The position numbers and the translations under genes were made by a program. A stretch of 64,000 nucleotides of DNA from a phage: the sequence record PZ445440.1; one strand, given 5' to 3'. The notes beneath the pieces were generated by a model that worked only from the letters and a program-made list of their open reading frames with translations, was not told the DNA's origin and searched no databases. This document shows, in pieces, positions 3,240 to 62,795 of the stretch; positions within the stretch are counted from its first letter, which is position 1, and each line of letters starts with the position of its first letter.

Positions 3240-3269
3240 ACTATATCATAGTCCTACTTAGTTGTAAAC
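3240..3269 (-). promoter_or_regulatory. T4-type early promoter with -10 embedded in inverted repeat TAGGACTA/TAGTCCTA
   Basis: Minus strand GTTTAC (3269-3264), 18-bp spacer, TATAGT; palindrome arms at 3233-3240 and 3249-3256. Confidence 0.45.
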
Positions 3270-12448: not shown

Positions 12449-12477
12449 ATAATATCAAAACCAGAGGAGAAGTAAAC
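12449..12477 (-). promoter_or_regulatory. T4-type early promoter; -10 inside inverted repeat CCTCTGGTT/AACCAGAGG
   Basis: Minus GTTTAC (12477-12472), 17-bp spacer, TATTAT (12454-12449). Confidence 0.5.
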
Positions 12478-12481
12478 AACT

Positions 12482-12901
12482 TTATGCGAAAGCAGCTGGG
12501 CTATATTTTTTAATTTGGAATTCAGGAACTACCATGAACTGTCCAGCGAAAACGATGTTATAAAGCTTAACACCATCTTCTACCCAACGGTCGCTAATAA
12601 ATCCGGCGATTTGCTTAGTTTTCCATGGTGTTCCATCAGTTGCCGCAGCAATAGTGAATTCATGGTCTTTTTCAACAGAAACTGATCTGCATAGTCCCCA
12701 TTTGAACGCTTTTTCTTCTGGTTCAATGAATTGGCTTGAGACGTAGCCAATATTACCATTAGCATCACGAACTTTAACTTGGTTACGACCAAAAACCGGA
12801 TCACTCACAGAAAGAACTTCAACCAACTTCCCGGCAACTTTAGAGCGAGAAGCAACAGATACATATACGTAATCACCTGTAGAGAGATTTACAATATTCA
12901 T
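12482..12901 (-). CDS. member A of tandem paralog family (139 aa), function unknown
   Basis: Shares N-terminal SxASRSKxAGKLVEV and C-terminal GFISDRWVEDGxKLYNIVFxGxFxVV motifs with the next two genes; TTG start with AAGGA SD. Confidence 0.7.
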   Translation of the reverse strand: MNIVNLSTGDYVYVSVASRSKVAGKLVEVLSVSDPVFGRNQVKVRDANGNIGYVSSQFIEPEEKAFKWGLCRSVSVEKDHEFTIAAATDGTPWKTKQIAGFISDRWVEDGVKLYNIVFAGQFMVVPEFQIKKYSPAAFA

Positions 12902-12910
12902 AATAATTCC

Positions 12911-13375
12911 TTAAGCTTTACGAGGAGACACATAGCGAGTGATTTCAGATTCTTTAACAACTCGGAAGTCACCTAAGAATACGATATTGTATAACTTTTC
13001 ACCATCTTCAACCCATTGGTCACTAATGAAGCCACACATAGTATCAGTTTTGCTTGGATAACCGTATTCATCGATGAAGTCAAATTCTTTATCAGTCTGG
13101 AATTCAACACCTTTACACAAGGCCCATTTGAACTGTGTAGTAGGCTCAACGATATCGCTTGAAGCAAAGTGGGCACTTACACGAGTTTCCAAGAATTTAG
13201 GACTTACATAGGCGAACTGAGTTTCAGTTTTTCCAGAACTAGGAATGATTCGAACTTTAACTTCTTTAATATGGCCCATGCCATTAGTACGAAGTCCTAC
13301 TACTTCAACCAGCTTTCCTGCAGCTTTAGAACGAGACGCTGTCGATACACGTTTAATTTCACCAATATTAATCAT
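12911..13375 (-). CDS. member B of tandem paralog family (154 aa from internal ATG)
   Basis: Motif CGFISDQWVEDGEKLYNIVFLGDFRVV; track ORF N-terminus overlaps the upstream promoter so start moved to MINIGEIK. Confidence 0.65.
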   Translation of the reverse strand: MINIGEIKRVSTASRSKAAGKLVEVVGLRTNGMGHIKEVKVRIIPSSGKTETQFAYVSPKFLETRVSAHFASSDIVEPTTQFKWALCKGVEFQTDKEFDFIDEYGYPSKTDTMCGFISDQWVEDGEKLYNIVFLGDFRVVKESEITRYVSPRKA

Positions 13376-13405
13376 ATTTTTTCTCTCTTTGTTTAAGTTG
13401 AATTC

Positions 13406-13436
13406 ATTATACTCCATCCATCCTTGGATGTAAAAC
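13406..13436 (-). promoter_or_regulatory. early promoter, member of the conserved 29-bp module family (variant -35)
   Basis: Plus ttatactccatccatccttggatgtaaaac; near-identical to modules at 13963, 55771 and 56792. Confidence 0.45.
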
Positions 13437-13437
13437 A

Positions 13438-13932
13438 TTAATTAAGAATATTAACTACTGCACTACGTGGAACAACACTAAAATCACCTGCATGAACAAC
13501 GTTCAGAAGTTCAACACCGTCTTCAATCCACTGGTCAGTTACCCAGCCACTTACCGGTCCAGCGAACGGACGTCGAATTGAAACAGCTTTACACAACAAA
13601 TCAGTAGGCTCAATAGGCTTAATCAGAGTACCGTACATACAAGCGATATCCATATCAATACAGATGTCTTTAACGGGTTCTACTTCTTCAATCAACAGTT
13701 CAAAGTCGGTGTTTGGAAGGGCGGTAGTAGAAATTGTACCGTATGAATTTTTAATTTCTAAGAATAACCAAGGGCCTTCAGCTTGTTTGATAAAGTTAAC
13801 AATAGTGAAACTATTACCTTGAGTGGCACCTAAAATTTCGCAAAACTTTTCATAAGCTCGCACTGAAGCGCCGTACCAGTTGATTTGTTTTTCGTCTTTC
13901 AGGATGTAAGTAGCCGTAGTATTGATATTCAT
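13438..13932 (-). CDS. member C of tandem paralog family (164 aa from internal ATG)
   Basis: C-terminal GWVTDQWIEDGVELLNVVHAGDFSVV shares the family motif; track ORF start (TTG) lies inside the promoter -10. Confidence 0.65.
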   Translation of the reverse strand: MNINTTATYILKDEKQINWYGASVRAYEKFCEILGATQGNSFTIVNFIKQAEGPWLFLEIKNSYGTISTTALPNTDFELLIEEVEPVKDICIDMDIACMYGTLIKPIEPTDLLCKAVSIRRPFAGPVSGWVTDQWIEDGVELLNVVHAGDFSVVPRSAVVNILN

Positions 13933-13962: not shown

Positions 13963-13992
13963 ATTATACTCCAACCATCCTTGGTTGTAAAC
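13963..13992 (-). promoter_or_regulatory. early promoter, conserved 29-bp module (GTTTAC-AACCAAGGATGGTTGGAG-TATAAT)
   Basis: Plus ttatactccaaccatccttggttgtaaac; identical module upstream of three other genes. Confidence 0.55.
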
Positions 13993-18455: not shown

Positions 18456-18531
18456 GATAGACCTCCATTTAAAGATAAGTCTATCATAACACGAGAGGAG
18501 GGAATGTAAACTACTTTTTAAGCTTTCCTAC

Positions 18532-23850: not shown

Positions 23851-23880
23851 ACTATACTATAGTCCATCTATAATGTAAAC
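23851..23880 (-). promoter_or_regulatory. T4-type early promoter; -10 within inverted repeat GGACTA/TAGTCC
   Basis: Minus GTTTAC (23880-23875), 18-bp spacer, TATAGT. Confidence 0.5.
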
Positions 23881-25161: not shown

Positions 25162-25190
25162 ATAATAACACAACTACTGGAGAAGTAAAC
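25162..25190 (-). promoter_or_regulatory. T4-type early promoter (GTTTAC-N17-TATTAT)
   Basis: Plus ttgataggtctataataacacaactactggagaagtaaac. Confidence 0.5.
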
Positions 25191-25565: not shown

Positions 25566-25620
25566 AATGTTTTCCTCTTGGTTGGTGTAAGTACATCATA
25601 TCATGCCTAGAGGAAGATGT

Positions 25621-25650
25621 AAACCCCGAAAGGAGACCGAAGTCTCCTTT
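25621..25650 (-). terminator. hairpin terminator after gene 41 (GGAGAC-UUCG-GUCUCC)
   Basis: Plus ggagac-cgaa-gtctcc flanked by T/A-rich runs on both sides (possibly bidirectional). Confidence 0.5.
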
Positions 25651-38045: not shown

Positions 38046-38072
38046 TTGTTGGATGAACTTATTATACTCCAA

Positions 38073-38090
38073 ATGGGACCGAAGTCCCAT
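38073..38090 (-). terminator. UUCG-tetraloop hairpin between regA and gene 43 (terminator or RNA stability element)
   Basis: Plus atgggac-cgaa-gtcccat, 7-bp stem; weak U-tract; immediately followed (in transcript direction) by a TATAAT box. Confidence 0.35.
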
Positions 38091-38094
38091 TGCT

Positions 38095-38463
38095 TTAATT
38101 ACCAATTGTATATTTTGCTTTCAAAGTCCAGTCATCTTTCTGTTTAAAAGAGATAACACGGAAGTTATTAGTCAGGCTAAATAGATCTTCACGAGCAGAG
38201 TCTTCAATAACAATCAATCCCCAGTCTTCAAGCAACTGGGCAATCGAATCACGTCGCTGATAGTCTTCACCATCGATATCAACTTGACGTCCGTCCATAC
38301 GCAACATTTCTTTAAAGTGGACGATGTAGTATTTACCTTGCTTTTGGAGGATATGACAGGACTGATAAAGAACTTTATCCTTGTTATTAGCGATGCCCAT
38401 ACGGGTCAGAGTCTCTTTGACTTTCAGAAAATCTTCTGGGTTCTTCAATTTAATTTCGATCAT
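38095..38463 (-). CDS. regA: RegA translational repressor
   Basis: 122 aa from MIEIKLKNPEDFLKVKETLTRMGIANNKDKVLYQSCHIL...; matches T4 RegA from memory. Confidence 0.85.
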   Translation of the reverse strand: MIEIKLKNPEDFLKVKETLTRMGIANNKDKVLYQSCHILQKQGKYYIVHFKEMLRMDGRQVDIDGEDYQRRDSIAQLLEDWGLIVIEDSAREDLFSLTNNFRVISFKQKDDWTLKAKYTIGN

Positions 38464-40068: not shown

Positions 40069-40755
40069 TTAGAAGTCGTGGGTAGAATCGGCTTCCATCG
40101 CAATAACATAACTTACTTGAGAGCTTTCAAACTTGGCTGCAACTTTATCACCAGCTCCCCACAACATTACTTTATAGTTACCTGGCTGGATTTTCATATT
40201 AGCCATATTGATTACGAAGTTAAAGTTGTTAGAACCATCATAATCGGTAAGAGTCAAAGAATACTTAGGACGAGTTAGTCCAGAATCTTCAACTTTATTA
40301 TAGCCATTGATAACAATTTTACCATCTTTATTTGTAATAGCAATTGTATCAATCTGAAGACCACGTGAAACTCGAAGCAATTGTTGAAGGTCTTCGGCTT
40401 TAATTTCAGTAATCACAGAAGCCACTGGGAATTGAATTGGCTTATTAGGAAAAACAATGGTGCTCTTGTCAGCGGCAGGCCAATAAACTGTGGAACGTGT
40501 ATCTGCAATTTTAATATTGCCATCAGTGTGCATTGAAATTTCAGCATCATCAGACACTAGACTCAAAATGCTTAAGAAGCTATTCAAATCATAAAGTGCT
40601 ACGTCAAAATCAATTTCATCAGAGATATTTGCTTCCGCATAAGTGGTGCCATTAACTGCACGAGTCATAATAAATTTACCTTGACTCAGCAGAATACCGG
40701 AGTTAATAGAGGCAAAGTTTTTCAGAATAGCGATAGTATCTTTAGACAGTTTCAT
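40069..40755 (-). CDS. 45: sliding clamp gp45
   Basis: 228 aa from MKLSKDTIAILKNFASINSGILL...; matches T4 gp45 from memory. Confidence 0.9.
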   Translation of the reverse strand: MKLSKDTIAILKNFASINSGILLSQGKFIMTRAVNGTTYAEANISDEIDFDVALYDLNSFLSILSLVSDDAEISMHTDGNIKIADTRSTVYWPAADKSTIVFPNKPIQFPVASVITEIKAEDLQQLLRVSRGLQIDTIAITNKDGKIVINGYNKVEDSGLTRPKYSLTLTDYDGSNNFNFVINMANMKIQPGNYKVMLWGAGDKVAAKFESSQVSYVIAMEADSTHDF

Positions 40756-41226: not shown

Positions 41227-41427
41227 TTATTCGTAGAAGTCGGTAACTGTCCATGCGGAATTGCGATTAGACATTATTTTATTATACTCATCTTTAAAAG
41301 CAGATTTGAGCATTTGTTCAGTAACAATATGTTCTTCACCTGAAAACGTATTGGTCAAAACATATTTTTTAATTTCAGGGACAACGAGAAGATGTTGGCC
41401 GGTTGAATACTCCATGTTGTTCTCCAT
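41227..41427 (-). CDS. hypothetical protein (66 aa)
   Basis: ORF in gene array. Confidence 0.55.
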   Translation of the reverse strand: MENNMEYSTGQHLLVVPEIKKYVLTNTFSGEEHIVTEQMLKSAFKDEYNKIMSNRNSAWTVTDFYE

Positions 41428-50104: not shown

Positions 50105-51918
50105 TGGTGTTTAACCCTATGCATGATTTCTTTATTTTTGCCTAGATTAAATCCGCGTTCGTTTGGATTTCCCAAATAACCGCATGTTCTTCTTATTGTG
50201 TTCATCTTTTTAGGATCAGTTTCTCCGCAAACTGAACAAACAAATCCATTTTCAGTAGGAGTCATTTCATGAGTACTTCCGCATGTAAAACATTTATCTA
50301 CTGGCATATTAACACCAAAATAATCTAAATGTTGTGCAGCATAATCCCAGACAGCCTCAAGTCCTTTTAAGTTATTTTTCATATCAGGAAGTTCAACATA
50401 AGAAATGTGACCACCTGTCGCAATGAAATGATATGGCGCTTCACGAGAAATCTTTTCAAACGGAGTAATATTTTCTTCTACTGAAACATGGAAACTATTA
50501 GTGTACCAGCCTTTATCGGTAACATCTTTTACGCTTCCATATTTTTCTGTATCGAGTTTACAAAAGCGATAACAAAGGTTTTCAGCAGGAGTAGAATATA
50601 AACTAAAAGCAAATCCGGTTCTTTCAGTCCACTGTTTAAGATGAGCATTCATTTTAGTTAAAATTTCTTGTCCAATATCACGACCGACAAGAATATTCAA
50701 TTCGTGAATACCGATGTATCCCAAAGACACTGAACTTCTACCATTTTTAAATAACTCAATTATGTCATCATCAGGTTTAAGACGAACCCCGAATGCACCT
50801 TCTTGGTAAAGAATAGGAGCAACAGTAGCTTTAACTCCTTTTAAGGAACTAATTCTACACATCAAGGCTTCAAAACACAGGTCCATTCGCTCGTCGAACA
50901 ATTCAGTAAATTTCTGTTCATTGAACTGTGTTCCAATATAAGAATCTAATGCGATACGAGGAAGATTCAGTGTTACAACACCGAGATTATTACGTCCATC
51001 AAGAATTTCATTACCAGTCGAATCTTTCCATACGCTCAAGAAACTACGGCAGCCCATTGGAGAAACTGGAACTGAAGAACCGGTAATAGCTTTATTATTC
51101 TTAACCGAAATAATGTCAGGATACATTCTTTTGCTTGCACATTCTAACGCAAGTTGTTTAATATCATAGTTCGGATCATCTTTATAAAGATTAACACCTT
51201 CTTCAACAAACATAACAAGCTTAGGGAAAATAGGAGTTATTCCATCACGACCAAGACCTTTAATGCGGTTTTTAAGAATTGCCTTCTGAATCATTCGTTC
51301 AGTCCAATCGGTTCCCGTACCAAATGTAATTGTTACAAAAGGAGTTTGTCCGTTTGAACTAAAGAGAGTATTTACTTCATATTCATAAGCTTGGAATGCG
51401 TCATAGACATCTTTTTCTGTTTTAGATTGAGCATAATTCAGAATGTCTGGTATTTGCCATTTTTCTGCATCTTCAACATGTTTAGCGTATGTGCGTTTAA
51501 CATAAGGAGAAAGAACTTTATCGACATTCGCAAATGTAGTTCCGCCATACTGGTGTGAAGCAACTTGCGCGGTAATTTGTGCCATAATTGCAGTAGCAAC
51601 GCCAATTGATTTAGGAGTTTCAATCTGTGCATTACCAAGCTTAAATCCGTTCTCAAGCATTCCTTTTAAATCTACTAAACAGCAATTAGTAAATGGAAGA
51701 GCAGGAGAATAATCAATATCATGCATGTGAATGATTCCGCTTTCATGCGCATTCATAATAAAAGACGGGACCATATTTTTGGCAATGTGCTTAGACACAA
51801 TACCAGCCATAAGGTCCCGTTGAGTTGGAAAAACACGAGAATCTTTATTAGCATTCTCGTTCAAAAGATCTTTATTAGTTTTATGAATTAATCCTTCAAT
51901 TTCTTTTTCAATTTTCAT
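50101..51918 (-). CDS. nrdD: anaerobic ribonucleoside-triphosphate reductase NrdD (intron-less)
   Basis: 605 aa continuous ORF; C-terminal glycyl-radical region and CxxC zinc ribbon (CFTCGSTHEM...CSVCG). Confidence 0.9.
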   Translation of the reverse strand: MKIEKEIEGLIHKTNKDLLNENANKDSRVFPTQRDLMAGIVSKHIAKNMVPSFIMNAHESGIIHMHDIDYSPALPFTNCCLVDLKGMLENGFKLGNAQIETPKSIGVATAIMAQITAQVASHQYGGTTFANVDKVLSPYVKRTYAKHVEDAEKWQIPDILNYAQSKTEKDVYDAFQAYEYEVNTLFSSNGQTPFVTITFGTGTDWTERMIQKAILKNRIKGLGRDGITPIFPKLVMFVEEGVNLYKDDPNYDIKQLALECASKRMYPDIISVKNNKAITGSSVPVSPMGCRSFLSVWKDSTGNEILDGRNNLGVVTLNLPRIALDSYIGTQFNEQKFTELFDERMDLCFEALMCRISSLKGVKATVAPILYQEGAFGVRLKPDDDIIELFKNGRSSVSLGYIGIHELNILVGRDIGQEILTKMNAHLKQWTERTGFAFSLYSTPAENLCYRFCKLDTEKYGSVKDVTDKGWYTNSFHVSVEENITPFEKISREAPYHFIATGGHISYVELPDMKNNLKGLEAVWDYAAQHLDYFGVNMPVDKCFTCGSTHEMTPTENGFVCSVCGETDPKKMNTIRRTCGYLGNPNERGFNLGKNKEIMHRVKHQ

Positions 51919-54487: not shown

Positions 54488-54792
54488 TATAATGTTCTCT
54501 CAAATTTGTGGAAGCATTTACGGCATTTCAATTTCAAGTTATCAGTGGTCCAGTTAACCAGTTGGACTTGGATAGTTCCACATTCCGGACATGGATGTTT
54601 TGCTGCCGATTTGGCAGCATTTTCACGTCGTTCAACCATTTTCATGATTTCGTTCCATGCCGGAGGAACGAACTCTTCTTCACTATGAATTTTATCTCGT
54701 TGAACAAATTCAATCTTTGAACTATCGTCAATAAACTTAACCAAGCGGTGATTAGTGTTCATATCAATATCTTCTAAAAGACGTAGTTTCAT
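54487..54792 (-). CDS. zinc-ribbon protein (101 aa)
   Basis: CPECG...CRKC motif pair. Confidence 0.55.
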   Translation of the reverse strand: MKLRLLEDIDMNTNHRLVKFIDDSSKIEFVQRDKIHSEEEFVPPAWNEIMKMVERRENAAKSAAKHPCPECGTIQVQLVNWTTDNLKLKCRKCFHKFERTL

Positions 54793-55742
54793 TATAACAC
54801 CTCAATGGCATTTCGTAAACCATCCGCTTTAGCATTCAGAGCTTTTAACGATTTAGTTTGTTCTGCAATCTGGGCTTCGACTTCTTTCAGACGAGATTTG
54901 AGATATTCGCGTTCTTCTCTTAAGTTATCAACTTTTTCTGCTTTAGGCTCTTTAATAGACTTAGGTTTATATGTATTAGGGTTCTTCAACTTAATTTGAA
55001 TGCGAGAACTGAATAACATCGAACCGTTATCTTCGGTTTCACTGTGCATTTCTACCACATCCATGATTCTTAACATCATGCGAAGTTTATAAGACAGCGA
55101 ACGAACGGTTTTATTGTGCTTCTTAATTTCTTCAGCTTTCATGGTGCCGAGATTACGTGAGTAGTAATAAGGAACCTGGATATCAATTGATAATGATGCG
55201 TTACCATTACCAGTTGGTTTGAATACTGCAGTAACCCAATCTTTAACATGAACTTTATTTGTACGATCATCGCCGCCTGTGAATAATTTACAAGAATGTT
55301 TAAAAAGCATATTCACTTGGTTATTGAATTCACAAGCAAATTTATCAGCAAATTTAGTTTCAGGAATGGTAGTTAACCATTCAGCCAAATGAGTCTTTTT
55401 AACATCATTAACAATAGTGAATTCAACCAAATCGGTTTTAGTTGTCACAGATTTAATAAAGCTCGGCTTCATAAAGTTTTTAATGTTATCGCGAGCTACA
55501 GTAGAAGATAATAAACGAGAACGTTTGAACCATTGAAGCAACGTCCCTAACGAATGAGAATACGCATTTTGAGTATCTTTACAGATATGATTTTCTTGGC
55601 CTATGTATGTACCAAAATCGCGAAGAATACCACTTACTACATCTCGGTGTGGAACATCAAATCCTAGTGCACCAGAAGCACGTTGGGCATGAACGTTAGC
55701 GATAAGACCTGCAAAGTATTCAATGTAATGTGAACGTGTCAT
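54792..55742 (-). CDS. hypothetical protein with C-terminal coiled coil (316 aa)
   Basis: ATG with GAGG SD; heptad-like C-terminus EEREYLKSRLKEVEAQIAEQTKSLKALNAKADGLRNAIEVL. Confidence 0.65.
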   Translation of the reverse strand: MTRSHYIEYFAGLIANVHAQRASGALGFDVPHRDVVSGILRDFGTYIGQENHICKDTQNAYSHSLGTLLQWFKRSRLLSSTVARDNIKNFMKPSFIKSVTTKTDLVEFTIVNDVKKTHLAEWLTTIPETKFADKFACEFNNQVNMLFKHSCKLFTGGDDRTNKVHVKDWVTAVFKPTGNGNASLSIDIQVPYYYSRNLGTMKAEEIKKHNKTVRSLSYKLRMMLRIMDVVEMHSETEDNGSMLFSSRIQIKLKNPNTYKPKSIKEPKAEKVDNLREEREYLKSRLKEVEAQIAEQTKSLKALNAKADGLRNAIEVL

Positions 55743-55770
55743 AATATTTTCCTCTCGTTAAGATAGATTC

Positions 55771-55800
55771 ATTATACTCCAACCATCCTTGGTTGTAAAC
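55771..55800 (-). promoter_or_regulatory. early promoter, conserved 29-bp module
   Basis: Plus ttatactccaaccatccttggttgtaaac (minus GTTTAC-N18-TATAAT). Confidence 0.55.
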
Positions 55801-55804
55801 TATT

Positions 55805-56764
55805 TTATGATTTTAATGCATTCATTGCGTTAAAAAGTTTAGAATACTGCAACTGGAGATTCGTTACAACACTTTGAGCATCACGAAGCTTAGCTTGTGC
55901 TTTGTCAAGTTCAACAGACAGTTGGTCTACAGTAGCCTTGATTTGGTTGTAATGATAATCTTCGGCTGGAAGAAGGTCATTAGAAACATTTAGTTTTACT
56001 GCAGACAGTTTGCACACATTTGGTAAACCTTTAAACATTGATTTACCTGAAGTAGAATAAGCACTTAGGACTTCAGCCTGTTCAATTGGGGTCCCAGTAA
56101 GCGATGCTTCGAACGTTGCATTTTCCTTTTTAAGATTTTGATAGTATTCAGAGTCTTTGTGCCACCATGGCGCAGGAACCTTTTTACCAATAGATACACG
56201 AGCCTGGATAGCGATATGGCCCTTATTCTTGATAGGGTCGATAATATTAAGCTCACGAGAATAAATTGCTTTAATCTCATGGATATTATCGCCTAACACT
56301 TCTAGCGCTTGGTGGAATACACGAGCAACGTTATCATTCTTAGGTTTATACGTAAGAGTGAACTCGTTCTCACTGATAACCATGATTTCTAACTTATCGT
56401 AAGTGTACTTAAGATGCTTCATGTTAACCGCTTGAGGACGAATACGAGAAGCAATGGCCATCAGATTGTTAAGGTTATTCCGGAACTGCTTAGCGAAATA
56501 TTGTCCTTCACCACCAATACAAAAATTACGAAGTTTCTGTTTGGCTAATAAACGGCTGAACTCACCATTTTTAATGAACTCTTTAACGGGTGTGTTAGTA
56601 ACGCATTCAAATTGAGTAAACTTACGAGAATTAATCCCATAATACGAACAGATTTCCTCAATCTCTTCAGGAGTCTTTACAGGCATACGGATAGGATTAG
56701 GTCCTGGAGTATATGCGTTCGAGGTAAATTCTTTGATAAGTTCTTTACGTGTAATAAAAGCCAT
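55805..56764 (-). CDS. hypothetical protein with C-terminal coiled coil (319 aa)
   Basis: ATG with GAGGAA SD; own promoter module. Confidence 0.65.
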   Translation of the reverse strand: MAFITRKELIKEFTSNAYTPGPNPIRMPVKTPEEIEEICSYYGINSRKFTQFECVTNTPVKEFIKNGEFSRLLAKQKLRNFCIGGEGQYFAKQFRNNLNNLMAIASRIRPQAVNMKHLKYTYDKLEIMVISENEFTLTYKPKNDNVARVFHQALEVLGDNIHEIKAIYSRELNIIDPIKNKGHIAIQARVSIGKKVPAPWWHKDSEYYQNLKKENATFEASLTGTPIEQAEVLSAYSTSGKSMFKGLPNVCKLSAVKLNVSNDLLPAEDYHYNQIKATVDQLSVELDKAQAKLRDAQSVVTNLQLQYSKLFNAMNALKS

Positions 56765-56791
56765 TTTATATTCCTCATGTTGAAAAATTTA

Positions 56792-56820
56792 TTATACTCC
56801 AACCATCCTTGGTTGTACAT
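56792..56820 (-). promoter_or_regulatory. early promoter, conserved 29-bp module (variant -35)
   Basis: Plus ttatactccaaccatccttggttgtacat. Confidence 0.5.
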
Positions 56821-57656
56821 CATTCCTTAAGAAGTTTTACTACCTGAATAAGATTAGCTCGTTCTGTTTTATTTTTACCGTTTAAGCCTGCTAATCGTGA
56901 GATTTCATCGTCAGTCTGTTGAATAGTTACATTAAGTTCGTTAATCAAAGCTTCAAAGTATTTGATTTGCTCAGCATGTTTTGATTCAAATTTCTGAACC
57001 GGAATAACGTCTTGGTTTAGTTCATCAATAAGGTCTTTAAGAGCATCTTCTTGGTTGATATCATATTCAACTTCTTTTATTTCTTCAACGAGCTCGTCTT
57101 TATATCTAACGTCTTTTAGTCCTGGTGCTGGTCCTGAAATCTCTTCTTTAAGAGTACAAACATATCCAATACGGTATCCAATGCCGGCTCGCTTGATATC
57201 AACTTCGTCGATAAATCCACAATGTTTAAGCCCGGAGCCGATTAGGTCAAAATATCCTTGACGTCGTCCTTCAAACGTTACATGAACTACTAAGACAGTT
57301 TTACCTGCAACCTTTTGAAGCTCACATTTATAAAAGTCAGTTGAACCTGAATAACGTGGATGAGTTTTAAAGTTCATCTGACGATCTAGGCCCATTTGTA
57401 AACGCGCTGTTACGGCCAGAAAACGTGTTTGGTTCTCGTTAAGATGAGCAACAATCCATTTCAAAGGCATTTTACATTGGTCACGACAGAACAAATCAAC
57501 ATATCCAAGATTACGAAGGATATTGTTAGAGTTAATCATCGACAGAACGTTAAGTTTATTCAGCGCGCTGAAGATTCCATCAGCCATTGATTTTCCGTAA
57601 CCTTTACACGCTTTAATAAGTGCTCGCGGCAGATTAGTATAGATTTCAGACGGCAT
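56820..57656 (-). CDS. hypothetical protein with C-terminal coiled coil (278 aa)
   Basis: ORF in array. Confidence 0.6.
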   Translation of the reverse strand: MPSEIYTNLPRALIKACKGYGKSMADGIFSALNKLNVLSMINSNNILRNLGYVDLFCRDQCKMPLKWIVAHLNENQTRFLAVTARLQMGLDRQMNFKTHPRYSGSTDFYKCELQKVAGKTVLVVHVTFEGRRQGYFDLIGSGLKHCGFIDEVDIKRAGIGYRIGYVCTLKEEISGPAPGLKDVRYKDELVEEIKEVEYDINQEDALKDLIDELNQDVIPVQKFESKHAEQIKYFEALINELNVTIQQTDDEISRLAGLNGKNKTERANLIQVVKLLKE

Positions 57657-57879
57657 ATGAAAATCAAATTTACTCTAACCAGTAATTGATGAACTTGGAT
57701 AGCAATTTGTTCATAATTAAGTGCTCTGCGATCATTATGGTCTTTAAACCACACTTTAATCTGTGAAGCACATAAACCGTTAATTTCATGTTTTACCGCA
57801 TCAGATGTAATGCTCATAACTATTTCCTCAGATTGAATTGGAACTCAAAACCATTATAACCCGTCCTTGGGTAAAGCGT

Positions 57880-58407
57880 TTATGCGTGAACCGTCTTTAA
57901 ACGTTCTTCAAATTTCCGAAGAGTACTAATACGTTCTGCTTTCTGTTTTGTATAGTTTGCAATACGTTCTGAAGTGAGAGCGTATCGTTCGTTTACTGTT
58001 TCTTTCATGAAGTCAGTGATTTCACGAGAAGCTTTAATTTCATCAAACTTATCGAGTACTGCCTGATCTTCAGCAATTAAATTTTCGTACATCTCGATAT
58101 CTTTCTTGATGAAGTCGATATCTTCCTGGGTTACTTTGGATAAACGAGATGCTTTATCCTTTTTGTATTGCTCGTTAGTTTCACGAGACCAGAATAATGT
58201 ACGGTTTTTGTTGGTGTTTTTGTAGACTTCCACAATTCCAACTGAATCGATGATAACAATCCAATTCCAGCGAGATTTGAAAATCTGACCTCCGTCCACG
58301 GTAATCTCGTTACCATAAGCAACATCATTAAAGAACTTGCTTTGTGCTTCAGATTTAAATTTACCGTCGTTATAATTTACCAGGTTGAAAATATCTTTAG
58401 CGTTCAT
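57880..58407 (-). CDS. hypothetical protein (175 aa)
   Basis: ATG with upstream promoter. Confidence 0.6.
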   Translation of the reverse strand: MNAKDIFNLVNYNDGKFKSEAQSKFFNDVAYGNEITVDGGQIFKSRWNWIVIIDSVGIVEVYKNTNKNRTLFWSRETNEQYKKDKASRLSKVTQEDIDFIKKDIEMYENLIAEDQAVLDKFDEIKASREITDFMKETVNERYALTSERIANYTKQKAERISTLRKFEERLKTVHA

Positions 58408-58434: not shown

Positions 58435-58463
58435 ATAATAACATAACCATAGACCTTGTAAAC
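58435..58463 (-). promoter_or_regulatory. T4-type early promoter; -10 between inverted repeat arms AGGTCTAT/ATAGACCT
   Basis: Minus GTTTAC (58463-58458), 17-bp spacer, TATTAT (58440-58435). Confidence 0.5.
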
Positions 58464-62303: not shown

Positions 62304-62333
62304 ACTATAACATAGTCCTACCAAGATGTAAAC
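62304..62333 (-). promoter_or_regulatory. T4-type early promoter; -10 in the loop of a perfect 10-bp inverted repeat GGTAGGACTA/TAGTCCTACC
   Basis: Minus GTTTAC (62333-62328), 18-bp spacer, TATAGT; arms at 62295-62304 and 62313-62322. Confidence 0.5.
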
Positions 62334-62566: not shown

Positions 62567-62795
62567 ACATTTGCAATTCGGTGTGGGCGTCAGCCATCTT
62601 TTTCATAGCTCTGTTAATGTCGATGTCTCCATCTTCGCAACCATGAGCATTTTCCCAATCAGATACCGCATTAGCGTACTCTTCAATCAAAAACATTAAC
62701 TTAGAAATTTTTTCTTTACGTGACATAACGTTCTCCTCTAGTAAGTAAGGTTTACTATAACACAACCTGAGGAGAAGTAAACTGATAGATGCCAA
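62547..62795 (-). CDS. hypothetical protein (82 aa)
   Basis: ORF in gene array. Confidence 0.55.
   Translation of the reverse strand: MASISLLLLRLCYSKPYLLEENVMSRKEKISKLMFLIEEYANAVSDWENAHGCEDGDIDINRAMKKMADAHTELQMYVNEIM

Follow-up and report, generated by a model that had tools for sequence, protein, structure and literature searches.

A repeated early promoter of the Mosigvirus Bas46 with a covarying GGA-loop hairpin in its spacer

Why a phage should conserve a promoter over its whole spacer, and not only in its two hexamers, is the question raised by the 64,000-nucleotide stretch of DNA analysed here (the window), in which a unit reading GTTTAC-AACCAAGGATGGTTGGAG-TATAAT on the minus strand (the module, GTTTACAACCAAGGATGGTTGGAGTATAAT) recurs upstream of several genes. 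The window corresponds to positions 64479-128478 of Escherichia phage ChristianSchoenbein (Bas46, MZ501056.1; 100% identity over a 3-kb query around the module), an RB69-like member of the Tevenvirinae in the genus Mosigvirus, and almost all of its genes lie on the minus strand and have early or middle functions. Searching the window for the 29-mer with up to three mismatches recovered four sites, against 0.00 expected in shuffled sequence, i.e. 13964-13992 and 55772-55800 (no mismatch), 56792-56820 (two mismatches) and 13407-13435 (three mismatches), and the other 105 kb of MZ501056.1 held no further copy at this threshold, leaving four in the whole Bas46 genome. The repeated module reported in a preliminary description of this DNA is therefore real, with coordinates shifted by one base at some ends. 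The 30-mers at 13963-13992 and 55771-55800 are identical to each other; the 56791-56820 copy is not, as it carries the two mismatches and has ATGTAC instead of GTTTAC as its −35, a degenerate hexamer overlapping the TGA stop codon of the upstream nrdC.6 open reading frame (ORF). The copy at 13406-13435 combines a TTTTAC −35 with a compensatory double change in the spacer, CATCCA/TGGATG replacing CAACCA/TGGTTG. A supposed truncated copy at 38059-38070 had to be discarded, as the common part is just TTGGAGTATAAT, lying behind a terminator-like hairpin in the −10 region of a different promoter. Among phage records, the 30-mer was found in 216; Mosigvirus has two to four copies, with the CAACCA stem, and Dhakavirus a single diverged one. 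The four Bas46 modules, with gene names taken from RB69, are as follows.

55771-55800, minus strand: module upstream of nrdC.3 (bas46_0188), −10 at 55771-55776, predicted +1 at about 55764, ATG at 55742.
56791-56820, minus strand: module upstream of nrdC.5 (bas46_0189), predicted +1 at about 56784, ATG at 56764.
13963-13992, minus strand: module upstream of motB.1 (bas46_0112), predicted +1 at about 13956, ATG at 13932.
13406-13435, minus strand: variant module (TTTTAC...TATAAT) upstream of motB (bas46_0111), predicted +1 at about 13399, ATG at 13375.

Judged from its sequence, the module is an ordinary T4-type sigma-70 early promoter. It reads TTTACA-N17-TATAAT, with 17-base pair (bp) spacing and 11 of 12 positions matching the sigma-70 consensus in three copies (10 of 12 in the 56791 copy, TGTACA), and it equals the T4 early consensus of GTTTAC at −36 to −31 plus TATAAT (PMC1524935). 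An A-rich UP-like stretch (cataaaata, gataaaacca, cttaattaatg) is found at about −40 to −44, correctly oriented 5′ of the ORFs, and the start codons follow 26-33 nucleotides (nt) past the −10, each with a Shine-Dalgarno sequence, the module itself standing some 22-33 nt ahead of them. The orthologous sites of RB69 are predicted early promoters in the supplement of Nolan et al. 2006, namely Pe:8387 (motB copy), Pe:8947 (motB.1 copy), Pe:51019 (nrdC.3 copy) and Pe:52042 (nrdC.5 copy) (PMC1524935). Two related GenBank records, one of them MH243438.1 (nrdC.3 site), also annotate the site as 'promoter'. The promoter claim was thus borne out by the consensus match, the placement before four ORFs, the RB69 predictions and these annotations; the promoter reading itself has been known since those 2006 predictions, and the Bas46 copies are presumably active. 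The early promoters of T4 type (Pe) reportedly go back to Liebig and Rueger in 1989. With them the module shares GTTTAC at −36 to −31, the TATAAT −10, the A-rich upstream stretch and the position before early ORFs, but its spacer contains a covarying hairpin, whereas the published sets regard the spacer as non-informative. The terms spacer, palindrome and inverted repeat are absent from the text of Nolan et al. (PMC1524935).

The inverted repeat in the spacer corresponds to a hairpin of 5-7 bp whose loop is constant and contains GGA (core CCA-AGGA-TGG); in the module, 3 nt separate the end of this hairpin from the −10 hexamer downstream.

55780-55795, minus strand: hairpin CAACCA-AGGA-UGGUUG of the nrdC.3 copy, loop at 55786-55789, −6.9 kcal/mol, z −2.3.
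56800-56815, minus strand: hairpin CAACCA-AGGA-UGGUUG of the nrdC.5 copy.
13972-13987, minus strand: hairpin CAACCA-AGGA-UGGUUG of the motB.1 copy.
13415-13430, minus strand: hairpin with the compensatory stem CAUCCA-AGGA-UGGAUG of the motB copy, −7.3 kcal/mol.

Relatives of this hairpin were gathered from the sequence ahead of T4 and RB69 genes and by pattern scans without a stem requirement, and gave the following stems.

CAACCA/UGGUUG: Mosigvirus module.
CAUCCA/UGGAUG: motB copy, and Dhakavirus.
CUUCCA/UGGAGG: Dhakavirus.
AGCCA/UGGCU: T4 nrdC.3.
U(G/A)CCACA/UGUGGUA: T4 nrdC.4 and rIIA.1.
UACCA/UGGUA: T4 nrdC.7, and Dhakavirus.
ACCC/GGGU: Mosigvirus nrdC.6, at 57853-57877 of the window, minus strand; a diverged member upstream of nrdC.6, with a MotA-box-like GCTTTA, the hairpin ACCC(A)-AGGA-(C)GGGU and then TATAAT.
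CACCA/UGGUG: bas46_0237.
AACACC/GGUGUU: Bas46 alc.
CCACA/UGUGG: rnlA, with loop AGGAU in Bas46 and UGGAG in T4.

Throughout, the arms vary between promoters and phages with pairing kept, and the AGGA centre is constant; the inner CCA...TGG arms next to it are nearly invariant. In the 12 distinct instances aligned, 93% of cells were paired, a figure inflated by the stem filter with which the alignment was partly gathered, compared with 65% in shuffles and 19-39% in slid-partner controls, and both sides have changed in three of the five stem pairs. Ascertainment was therefore also made stem-free, in IMG/VR, with the fixed core CCAAGGATGG plus a nearby TATAAT. The helix was longer by at least three pairs in 17 of 78 distinct contexts (4.1 expected, P = 5e-7), and in 10 of 65 when each sequence cluster was counted once (3.4 expected, P = 0.002); these tests are weaker than the 12-instance result, yet significant. 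For background, a stem of at least 4 bp occurred in about 5% of the GTTTAC..AAGGA..TATAAT matches listed for unrelated IMG/VR viruses. In Bas46 the hairpin is present at all five AAGGA-bearing sites with a good −35/−10 match, these being five of the seven sites within two mismatches of GTTTAC. A genome-wide count of any stem-AGGA-stem arrangement showed no excess over shuffles, and the signal is restricted to the CCA-AGGA-TGG type within promoters.

The hairpin is kept across promoter classes, i.e. the early −35 type, the MotA-box type and TATAAA variants, at an offset from the −10 that ranges from a 2-nt overlap to 5 nt upstream. The 57853-57877 site is the positional homologue of T4 PnrdC.7, a middle promoter whose start has been mapped by experiment to 53325 (PMC2988021); this start is the 7th nt past TATAAT, and the T4 hairpin lies between MotA box and −10, which counts in favour of the promoter reading of the module. 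At the orthologous rnlA promoters, Bas46 has CCACA-AGGAU-UGUGG and T4 has CCACA-UGGAG-UGUGG. Outside the window, GGA-loop spacer hairpins were seen at the alc, rnlA and bas46_0237 promoters of Bas46 (about 40100-40130, 41290-41320 and 141920-141940; L002, L004), and T4 has a near-identical promoter pair upstream of rIIA.1 and nrdC.4 (NC_000866, about 2410-2450 and 50925-50965; L170, L171) whose hairpin, U(A/G)CCACA-AGGA-UGUGGUA, overlaps the extended −10. Promoters with a TTGAC(A/T) −35 and a CCA-AGGA-TGG spacer hairpin, with further different stems, were observed, within the stem-free set, in IMG/VR contigs of distant T4-like or unplaced phages (L191, L219, L236, L239 and L277); L219, with its TTGACA promoter, has no relative in the phage collection. 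Nothing but noise came from an Rfam scan of 55000-58000 run at a permissive E-value, and a mini-ORF read across the module (AUG GUU GGA GUA UAA) was rejected, its Shine-Dalgarno-like AAGGA abutting the AUG and the ORF not being conserved in other versions. The covariation points to selection on the spacer hairpin, which appears to be common among T4-like phages and of which the literature searched seems to hold no description.

How, then, did the copies come to be so alike? The genes that follow them are listed here.

54792-55742, minus strand: nrdC.3 homologue, 316 amino acids (aa), no Pfam hit, under the 55771 copy.
55805-56764, minus strand: nrdC.5 homologue, 319 aa, DUF7235.
13438-13932, minus strand: motB.1 homologue, 164 aa, C-terminal MotB domain.
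12911-13375, minus strand: motB homologue, 154 aa, PF17613.

Protein comparison showed no mutual similarity among NrdC.3, NrdC.5 and the MotB-type proteins, and the description of the downstream genes as unrelated stands to that extent; it does not extend to MotB and MotB.1, which have a C-terminal MotB domain in common. Even these two are only 44% identical over 36 aa, compared with 27 of 30 positions matching between their promoters. With downstream genes that are either unrelated or far diverged, the identity of the copies is not accounted for by gene duplication, and tandem duplication was ruled out as its cause by these protein comparisons. That the modules are chance matches or a leftover of tandem gene duplication is accordingly a negligible prospect in our eyes: motB and motB.1 are indeed tandem paralogues, but zero matches are expected by chance and the proteins have diverged far beyond their promoters. 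Selection for a single optimal sequence is no explanation either, because T4 keeps a different homogenised version, GTTTACTTT(G/A)CCACAAGGATGTGGTATAAT, identical at 29 of 30 positions between rIIA.1 and nrdC.4 although these lie 48 kb apart. The nrdC.3 and motB.1 copies of RB69 have 48 nt in common, a stretch that takes in the flanks, whereas the flanks of the Bas46 nrdC.3 copy differ. The sequences thus point to concerted evolution of the modules, most simply by gene conversion between copies, and such non-allelic recombination would have kept the four copies alike within the Mosigvirus lineage. As a related-locus search with NrdC.3 gave only four close loci, tblastn and the whole T4 and RB69 loci were used instead.

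Around these genes, three tandem MotB-family genes (motB.1, motB and an extra motB-like ORF) lie downstream of dexA at 12482-13932, a region in which the T4 gene order differs. At 56820-57817, nrdC.6 is represented by two overlapping ORFs (bas46_0190 and bas46_0191), compared with a single 996-nt coding sequence in NBG1 and RB69, and is probably a frameshifted gene in Bas46.

The context recalls the promoter-early stem-loops (PeSLs) of T4-like phages (Arbiol 2010, PMC2839356; Comeau 2014, PMC4122927), which have been reported for the T4/PST pair with the consensus TTTACW-N17-TAYWAT (PMC2839356, PMC4122927). Like PeSLs, the Bas46 modules are near-identical early-promoter cassettes in hyperplastic regions beside accessory genes, a kind of arrangement proposed as a recombination substrate, with sigma-70-like early promoters repeated in the nrdC.x and motB clusters. 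The PeSL stem-loop, however, is a terminator that immediately precedes the promoter (in RB49/phi1 G-rich...C-rich, in PST AGNA...TCNT), whereas that of the module is inside the −35/−10 spacer, without a U tract, with a conserved GGA loop and with no indels found. Assignment of the modules to PeSLs was rejected on the position of the stem-loop inside the spacer, together with the lack of any minus-strand terminator-like site upstream of the modules. An arrangement that looks like a classical PeSL, terminator upstream of promoter, is present elsewhere in the window, at 38059-38100 (minus strand), where the terminator-like hairpin GGGAC-UUCG-GUCCC plus UUU is directly followed by GGAGTATAAT. A second repeated promoter family, GTTTAC..(G)TAGGACTAT..TATAGT-AGTCCTA, occurs at 2728-2757, 3240-3269, 23851-23880 and 62304-62333 (minus strand), with an inverted repeat across the −10 and start site.

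Concerning the role of the hairpin, we favour, with moderate confidence, the reading that the modules are early promoters whose spacer hairpin acts in read-through RNA, the copies being kept alike by gene conversion. Host sigma-70 RNA polymerase would read each copy and fire leftward into motB.1, motB, nrdC.3 or nrdC.5, and the 17-18 bp spacer, which the polymerase barely reads, would encode a second signal, the hairpin with its GGA loop (CCA-AGGA-UGG). As the hairpin lies upstream of the start of its own promoter, it would be missing from own-promoter RNA and would occur solely in read-through RNA begun at a promoter further upstream, e.g. a neighbouring module copy. By sequence layout, the nrdC.5 copy reads directly into the nrdC.3 copy, with the two bracketing nrdC.5 as direct copies 1020 bp apart, and the motB.1 copy reads into the motB copy, with the two bracketing motB.1 at 557 bp. 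No terminator-like site was found on the minus strand from dda/dexA to motB or from nrdC.8 to nrdC.3, so read-through between the copies is plausible. In read-through RNA, the hairpin could serve as a tag that separates read-through from locally initiated messages of one gene, and a putative RNA-binding protein could recognise the GGA loop and affect translation or stability.

An RNA-level role is favoured because of nearby spacers that are complementary to Shine-Dalgarno regions, an established precedent in T4, a swap at alc and the survival of the hairpin across promoter classes. Early-type spacers at 12449-12477, 18483-18511, 25162-25190, 25595-25624, 58435-58463 and 62754-62782 (minus strand) can each pair with the Shine-Dalgarno region of their own downstream gene, over 8-14 nt (e.g. 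TTCTCCAGTAGTTG versus CAACTACTGGAGAA); the 12449-12477 spacer TTCTCCTCTGGTT is complementary to AACCAGAGGAGAA, and the complementarity at 25162-25190 reaches 14 nt. T4 motB.2, nrdC.8 and alc have the same feature. Being upstream of the start, such an anti-Shine-Dalgarno spacer would act only in read-through RNA, sequestering the ribosome-binding site, and locally started RNA would be spared. At alc, the orthologous promoter has an anti-Shine-Dalgarno spacer in T4 and the GGA hairpin in Bas46. Promoters that hold the 5′ arm of an inhibitory structure are well established at T4 e, soc, 49 and I-TevI (PMC3014915). There too, the 5′ part of the structure encloses or precedes the proximal promoter, and the structure forms only in the longer transcripts from upstream promoters; but pairing there is with the Shine-Dalgarno sequence or AUG, and the promoters concerned are late ones, whereas the module hairpin is local, excludes the ribosome-binding site and is found in early and middle promoters. 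When the module was examined for sequestration of the ribosome-binding site, the predicted fold was the local hairpin, with the Shine-Dalgarno sequence not pairing with the spacer.

Several observations weigh against this role in read-through RNA or against the gene conversion coupled to it. The folding energy of the module hairpin is weak, about −7 kcal/mol, and the pairing figure of the 12-instance alignment is inflated as stated above. All CCA-AGGA-TGG instances found lie in promoter spacers, which also fits a promoter role at the DNA level. Two U.G pairs point to the sense strand, but the common A.C closing pair would be G.U on the antisense strand, so that the wobbles leave the strand unfixed. 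In four Mosigviruses the locus is collinear at 95-97% identity, with no mosaic breakpoints, indels or gene-content changes at the modules, and sliding-window divergence against RB69, NBG1 and an IMG/VR Mosigvirus showed no breakpoints there.

A DNA-level alternative, in which a dimeric regulator, from phage or host, binds the inverted repeat as duplex and modulates this subset of promoters, e.g. in early shut-off, strikes us as unlikely. Every instance does lie between an upstream promoter element (−35 or MotA box) and the −10, the centre-proximal CCA...TGG arms hardly vary, and the A.C closing variants, being G.T on the opposite strand, do not single out one strand. Yet the outer arm positions are free to vary as long as they stay complementary, and the asymmetric AGGA centre is the most conserved part, which is the reverse of a palindromic operator; moreover, the offset from the −10 and the promoter context (−35, MotA box, TATAAA) both change, and no candidate DNA-binding protein is known. 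Variable complementary arms around a constant asymmetric centre thus argue for a hairpin with a recognised loop, and the shared regulator binding site of the preliminary description would hold only in modified form, as a putative RNA hairpin with a GGA loop and not as a double-stranded palindromic operator. Still less probable, in our judgement, is a pure recombination cassette, i.e. a PeSL-like mobile promoter kept by copying, whose palindrome is functionless or just a target for recombination or nucleases. Copying could account for the lineage-specific homogenised versions and co-converted flanks, for direct copies that bracket single accessory genes (nrdC.5, motB.1) and for modules in hyperplastic regions, as with PeSLs (PMC2839356, PMC4122927); it cannot yield at least eight different stems, from unrelated promoters and genera, that all pair about one and the same loop, and the Mosigvirus modules lack indels and mosaic junctions. 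The recombinational spread suggested in the preliminary description is nonetheless supported by the concerted evolution and the co-converted RB69 flanks, although the modules of Mosigviruses show no mosaic breakpoints or indels. The gene after the nrdC.8-proximal promoter differs by genus, being nrdC.7 in T4 and nrdC.6 in Mosigvirus.

If the hairpin acts in RNA, what might read it? One candidate is an RNA processing or stability element, in which the hairpin and the following GGAG direct cleavage of read-through RNA by RegB/S1 or RNase E, or, in a variant, the hairpin shields the 3′ end of the upstream cistron and uncouples adjacent messages; we consider it doubtful. The GGAGUAUAAUG directly after the stem agrees with the RegB/S1 consensus GGAGRAYARAA (PMC1702504) at 8 of 11 positions, the versions of Mosigvirus, Dhakavirus and T4 nrdC.3 all have GGAG after the hairpin, and regB is present in the Bas46 genome. 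However, the T4 nrdC.4, rIIA.1 and nrdC.7 versions lack GGAG, and RegB requires single-stranded RNA, whereas the first G of the module GGAG is paired in the stem; the loop GGAU is presumably resistant too, RegB cutting only 2 of 30 T4 intergenic GGAU motifs (55.2 and motB.2) and 28 resisting.

The other candidate is CsrA, whose site the loop resembles at the level of the motif. CsrA prefers RUACARGGAUGU in SELEX, with GGA in a short hairpin loop and a bridging range of 10-63 nt (PMC7652899). The module matches 9 of the 12 positions, including all eight of the core CARGGAUG, and T4 nrdC.4 and rIIA.1 match 10 of 12, with ACA, GGA and GU included. Like the CsrA/RsmA hairpins of the glgC leader and the CsrB repeats, these have 4-7 bp and a GGA in a 4-6 nt loop, and the module core CAAGGAUG fits CARGGAUG, T4 nrdC.4 and rIIA.1 reading ACAAGGAUGU; they differ in sitting in phage intergenic promoter spacers, and the likeness is one of motif only. 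A second GGA lies about 30-35 nt away, inside that bridging range, in the Shine-Dalgarno sequence of nrdC.3, nrdC.5 and motB.1, where GGA is frequent anyway; the motB Shine-Dalgarno (AGAGAGA) and some T4 copies are without it. The literature search found no paper linking CsrA to T4. That GGA-loop spacer hairpins form a conserved post-transcriptional switch, in which host CsrA or a phage GGA-loop binder silences or destabilises read-through transcripts of the downstream accessory gene and own-promoter transcripts escape, is for us a tentative and rather improbable extension of the read-through proposal; such a switch would be the protein-mediated counterpart of the neighbouring anti-Shine-Dalgarno spacers.

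The new part of this work is the spacer hairpin, to which a function can be ascribed only provisionally, on comparative grounds. The intergenic regions of T-even phages are very short, and the promoter spacer is nearly the sole free sequence upstream of the start site; our analysis indicates that this spacer also carries a further signal at the RNA level, through a GGA-loop hairpin or else an anti-Shine-Dalgarno segment, which, if true, would account for the conservation of the whole spacer. The idea that repeated promoter cassettes such as PeSLs serve as recombination substrates is thereby refined. The proposal, if true, would also offer a possible link of T4-like phages to the host Csr system, and a way into the question of how expression from the gene's own promoter (immediate-early) is kept apart from read-through expression (delayed-early) in accessory and counter-defence genes, e.g. 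nrdC.5, which in T4 is an anti-Dsr1 accessory gene (PMC9391042).

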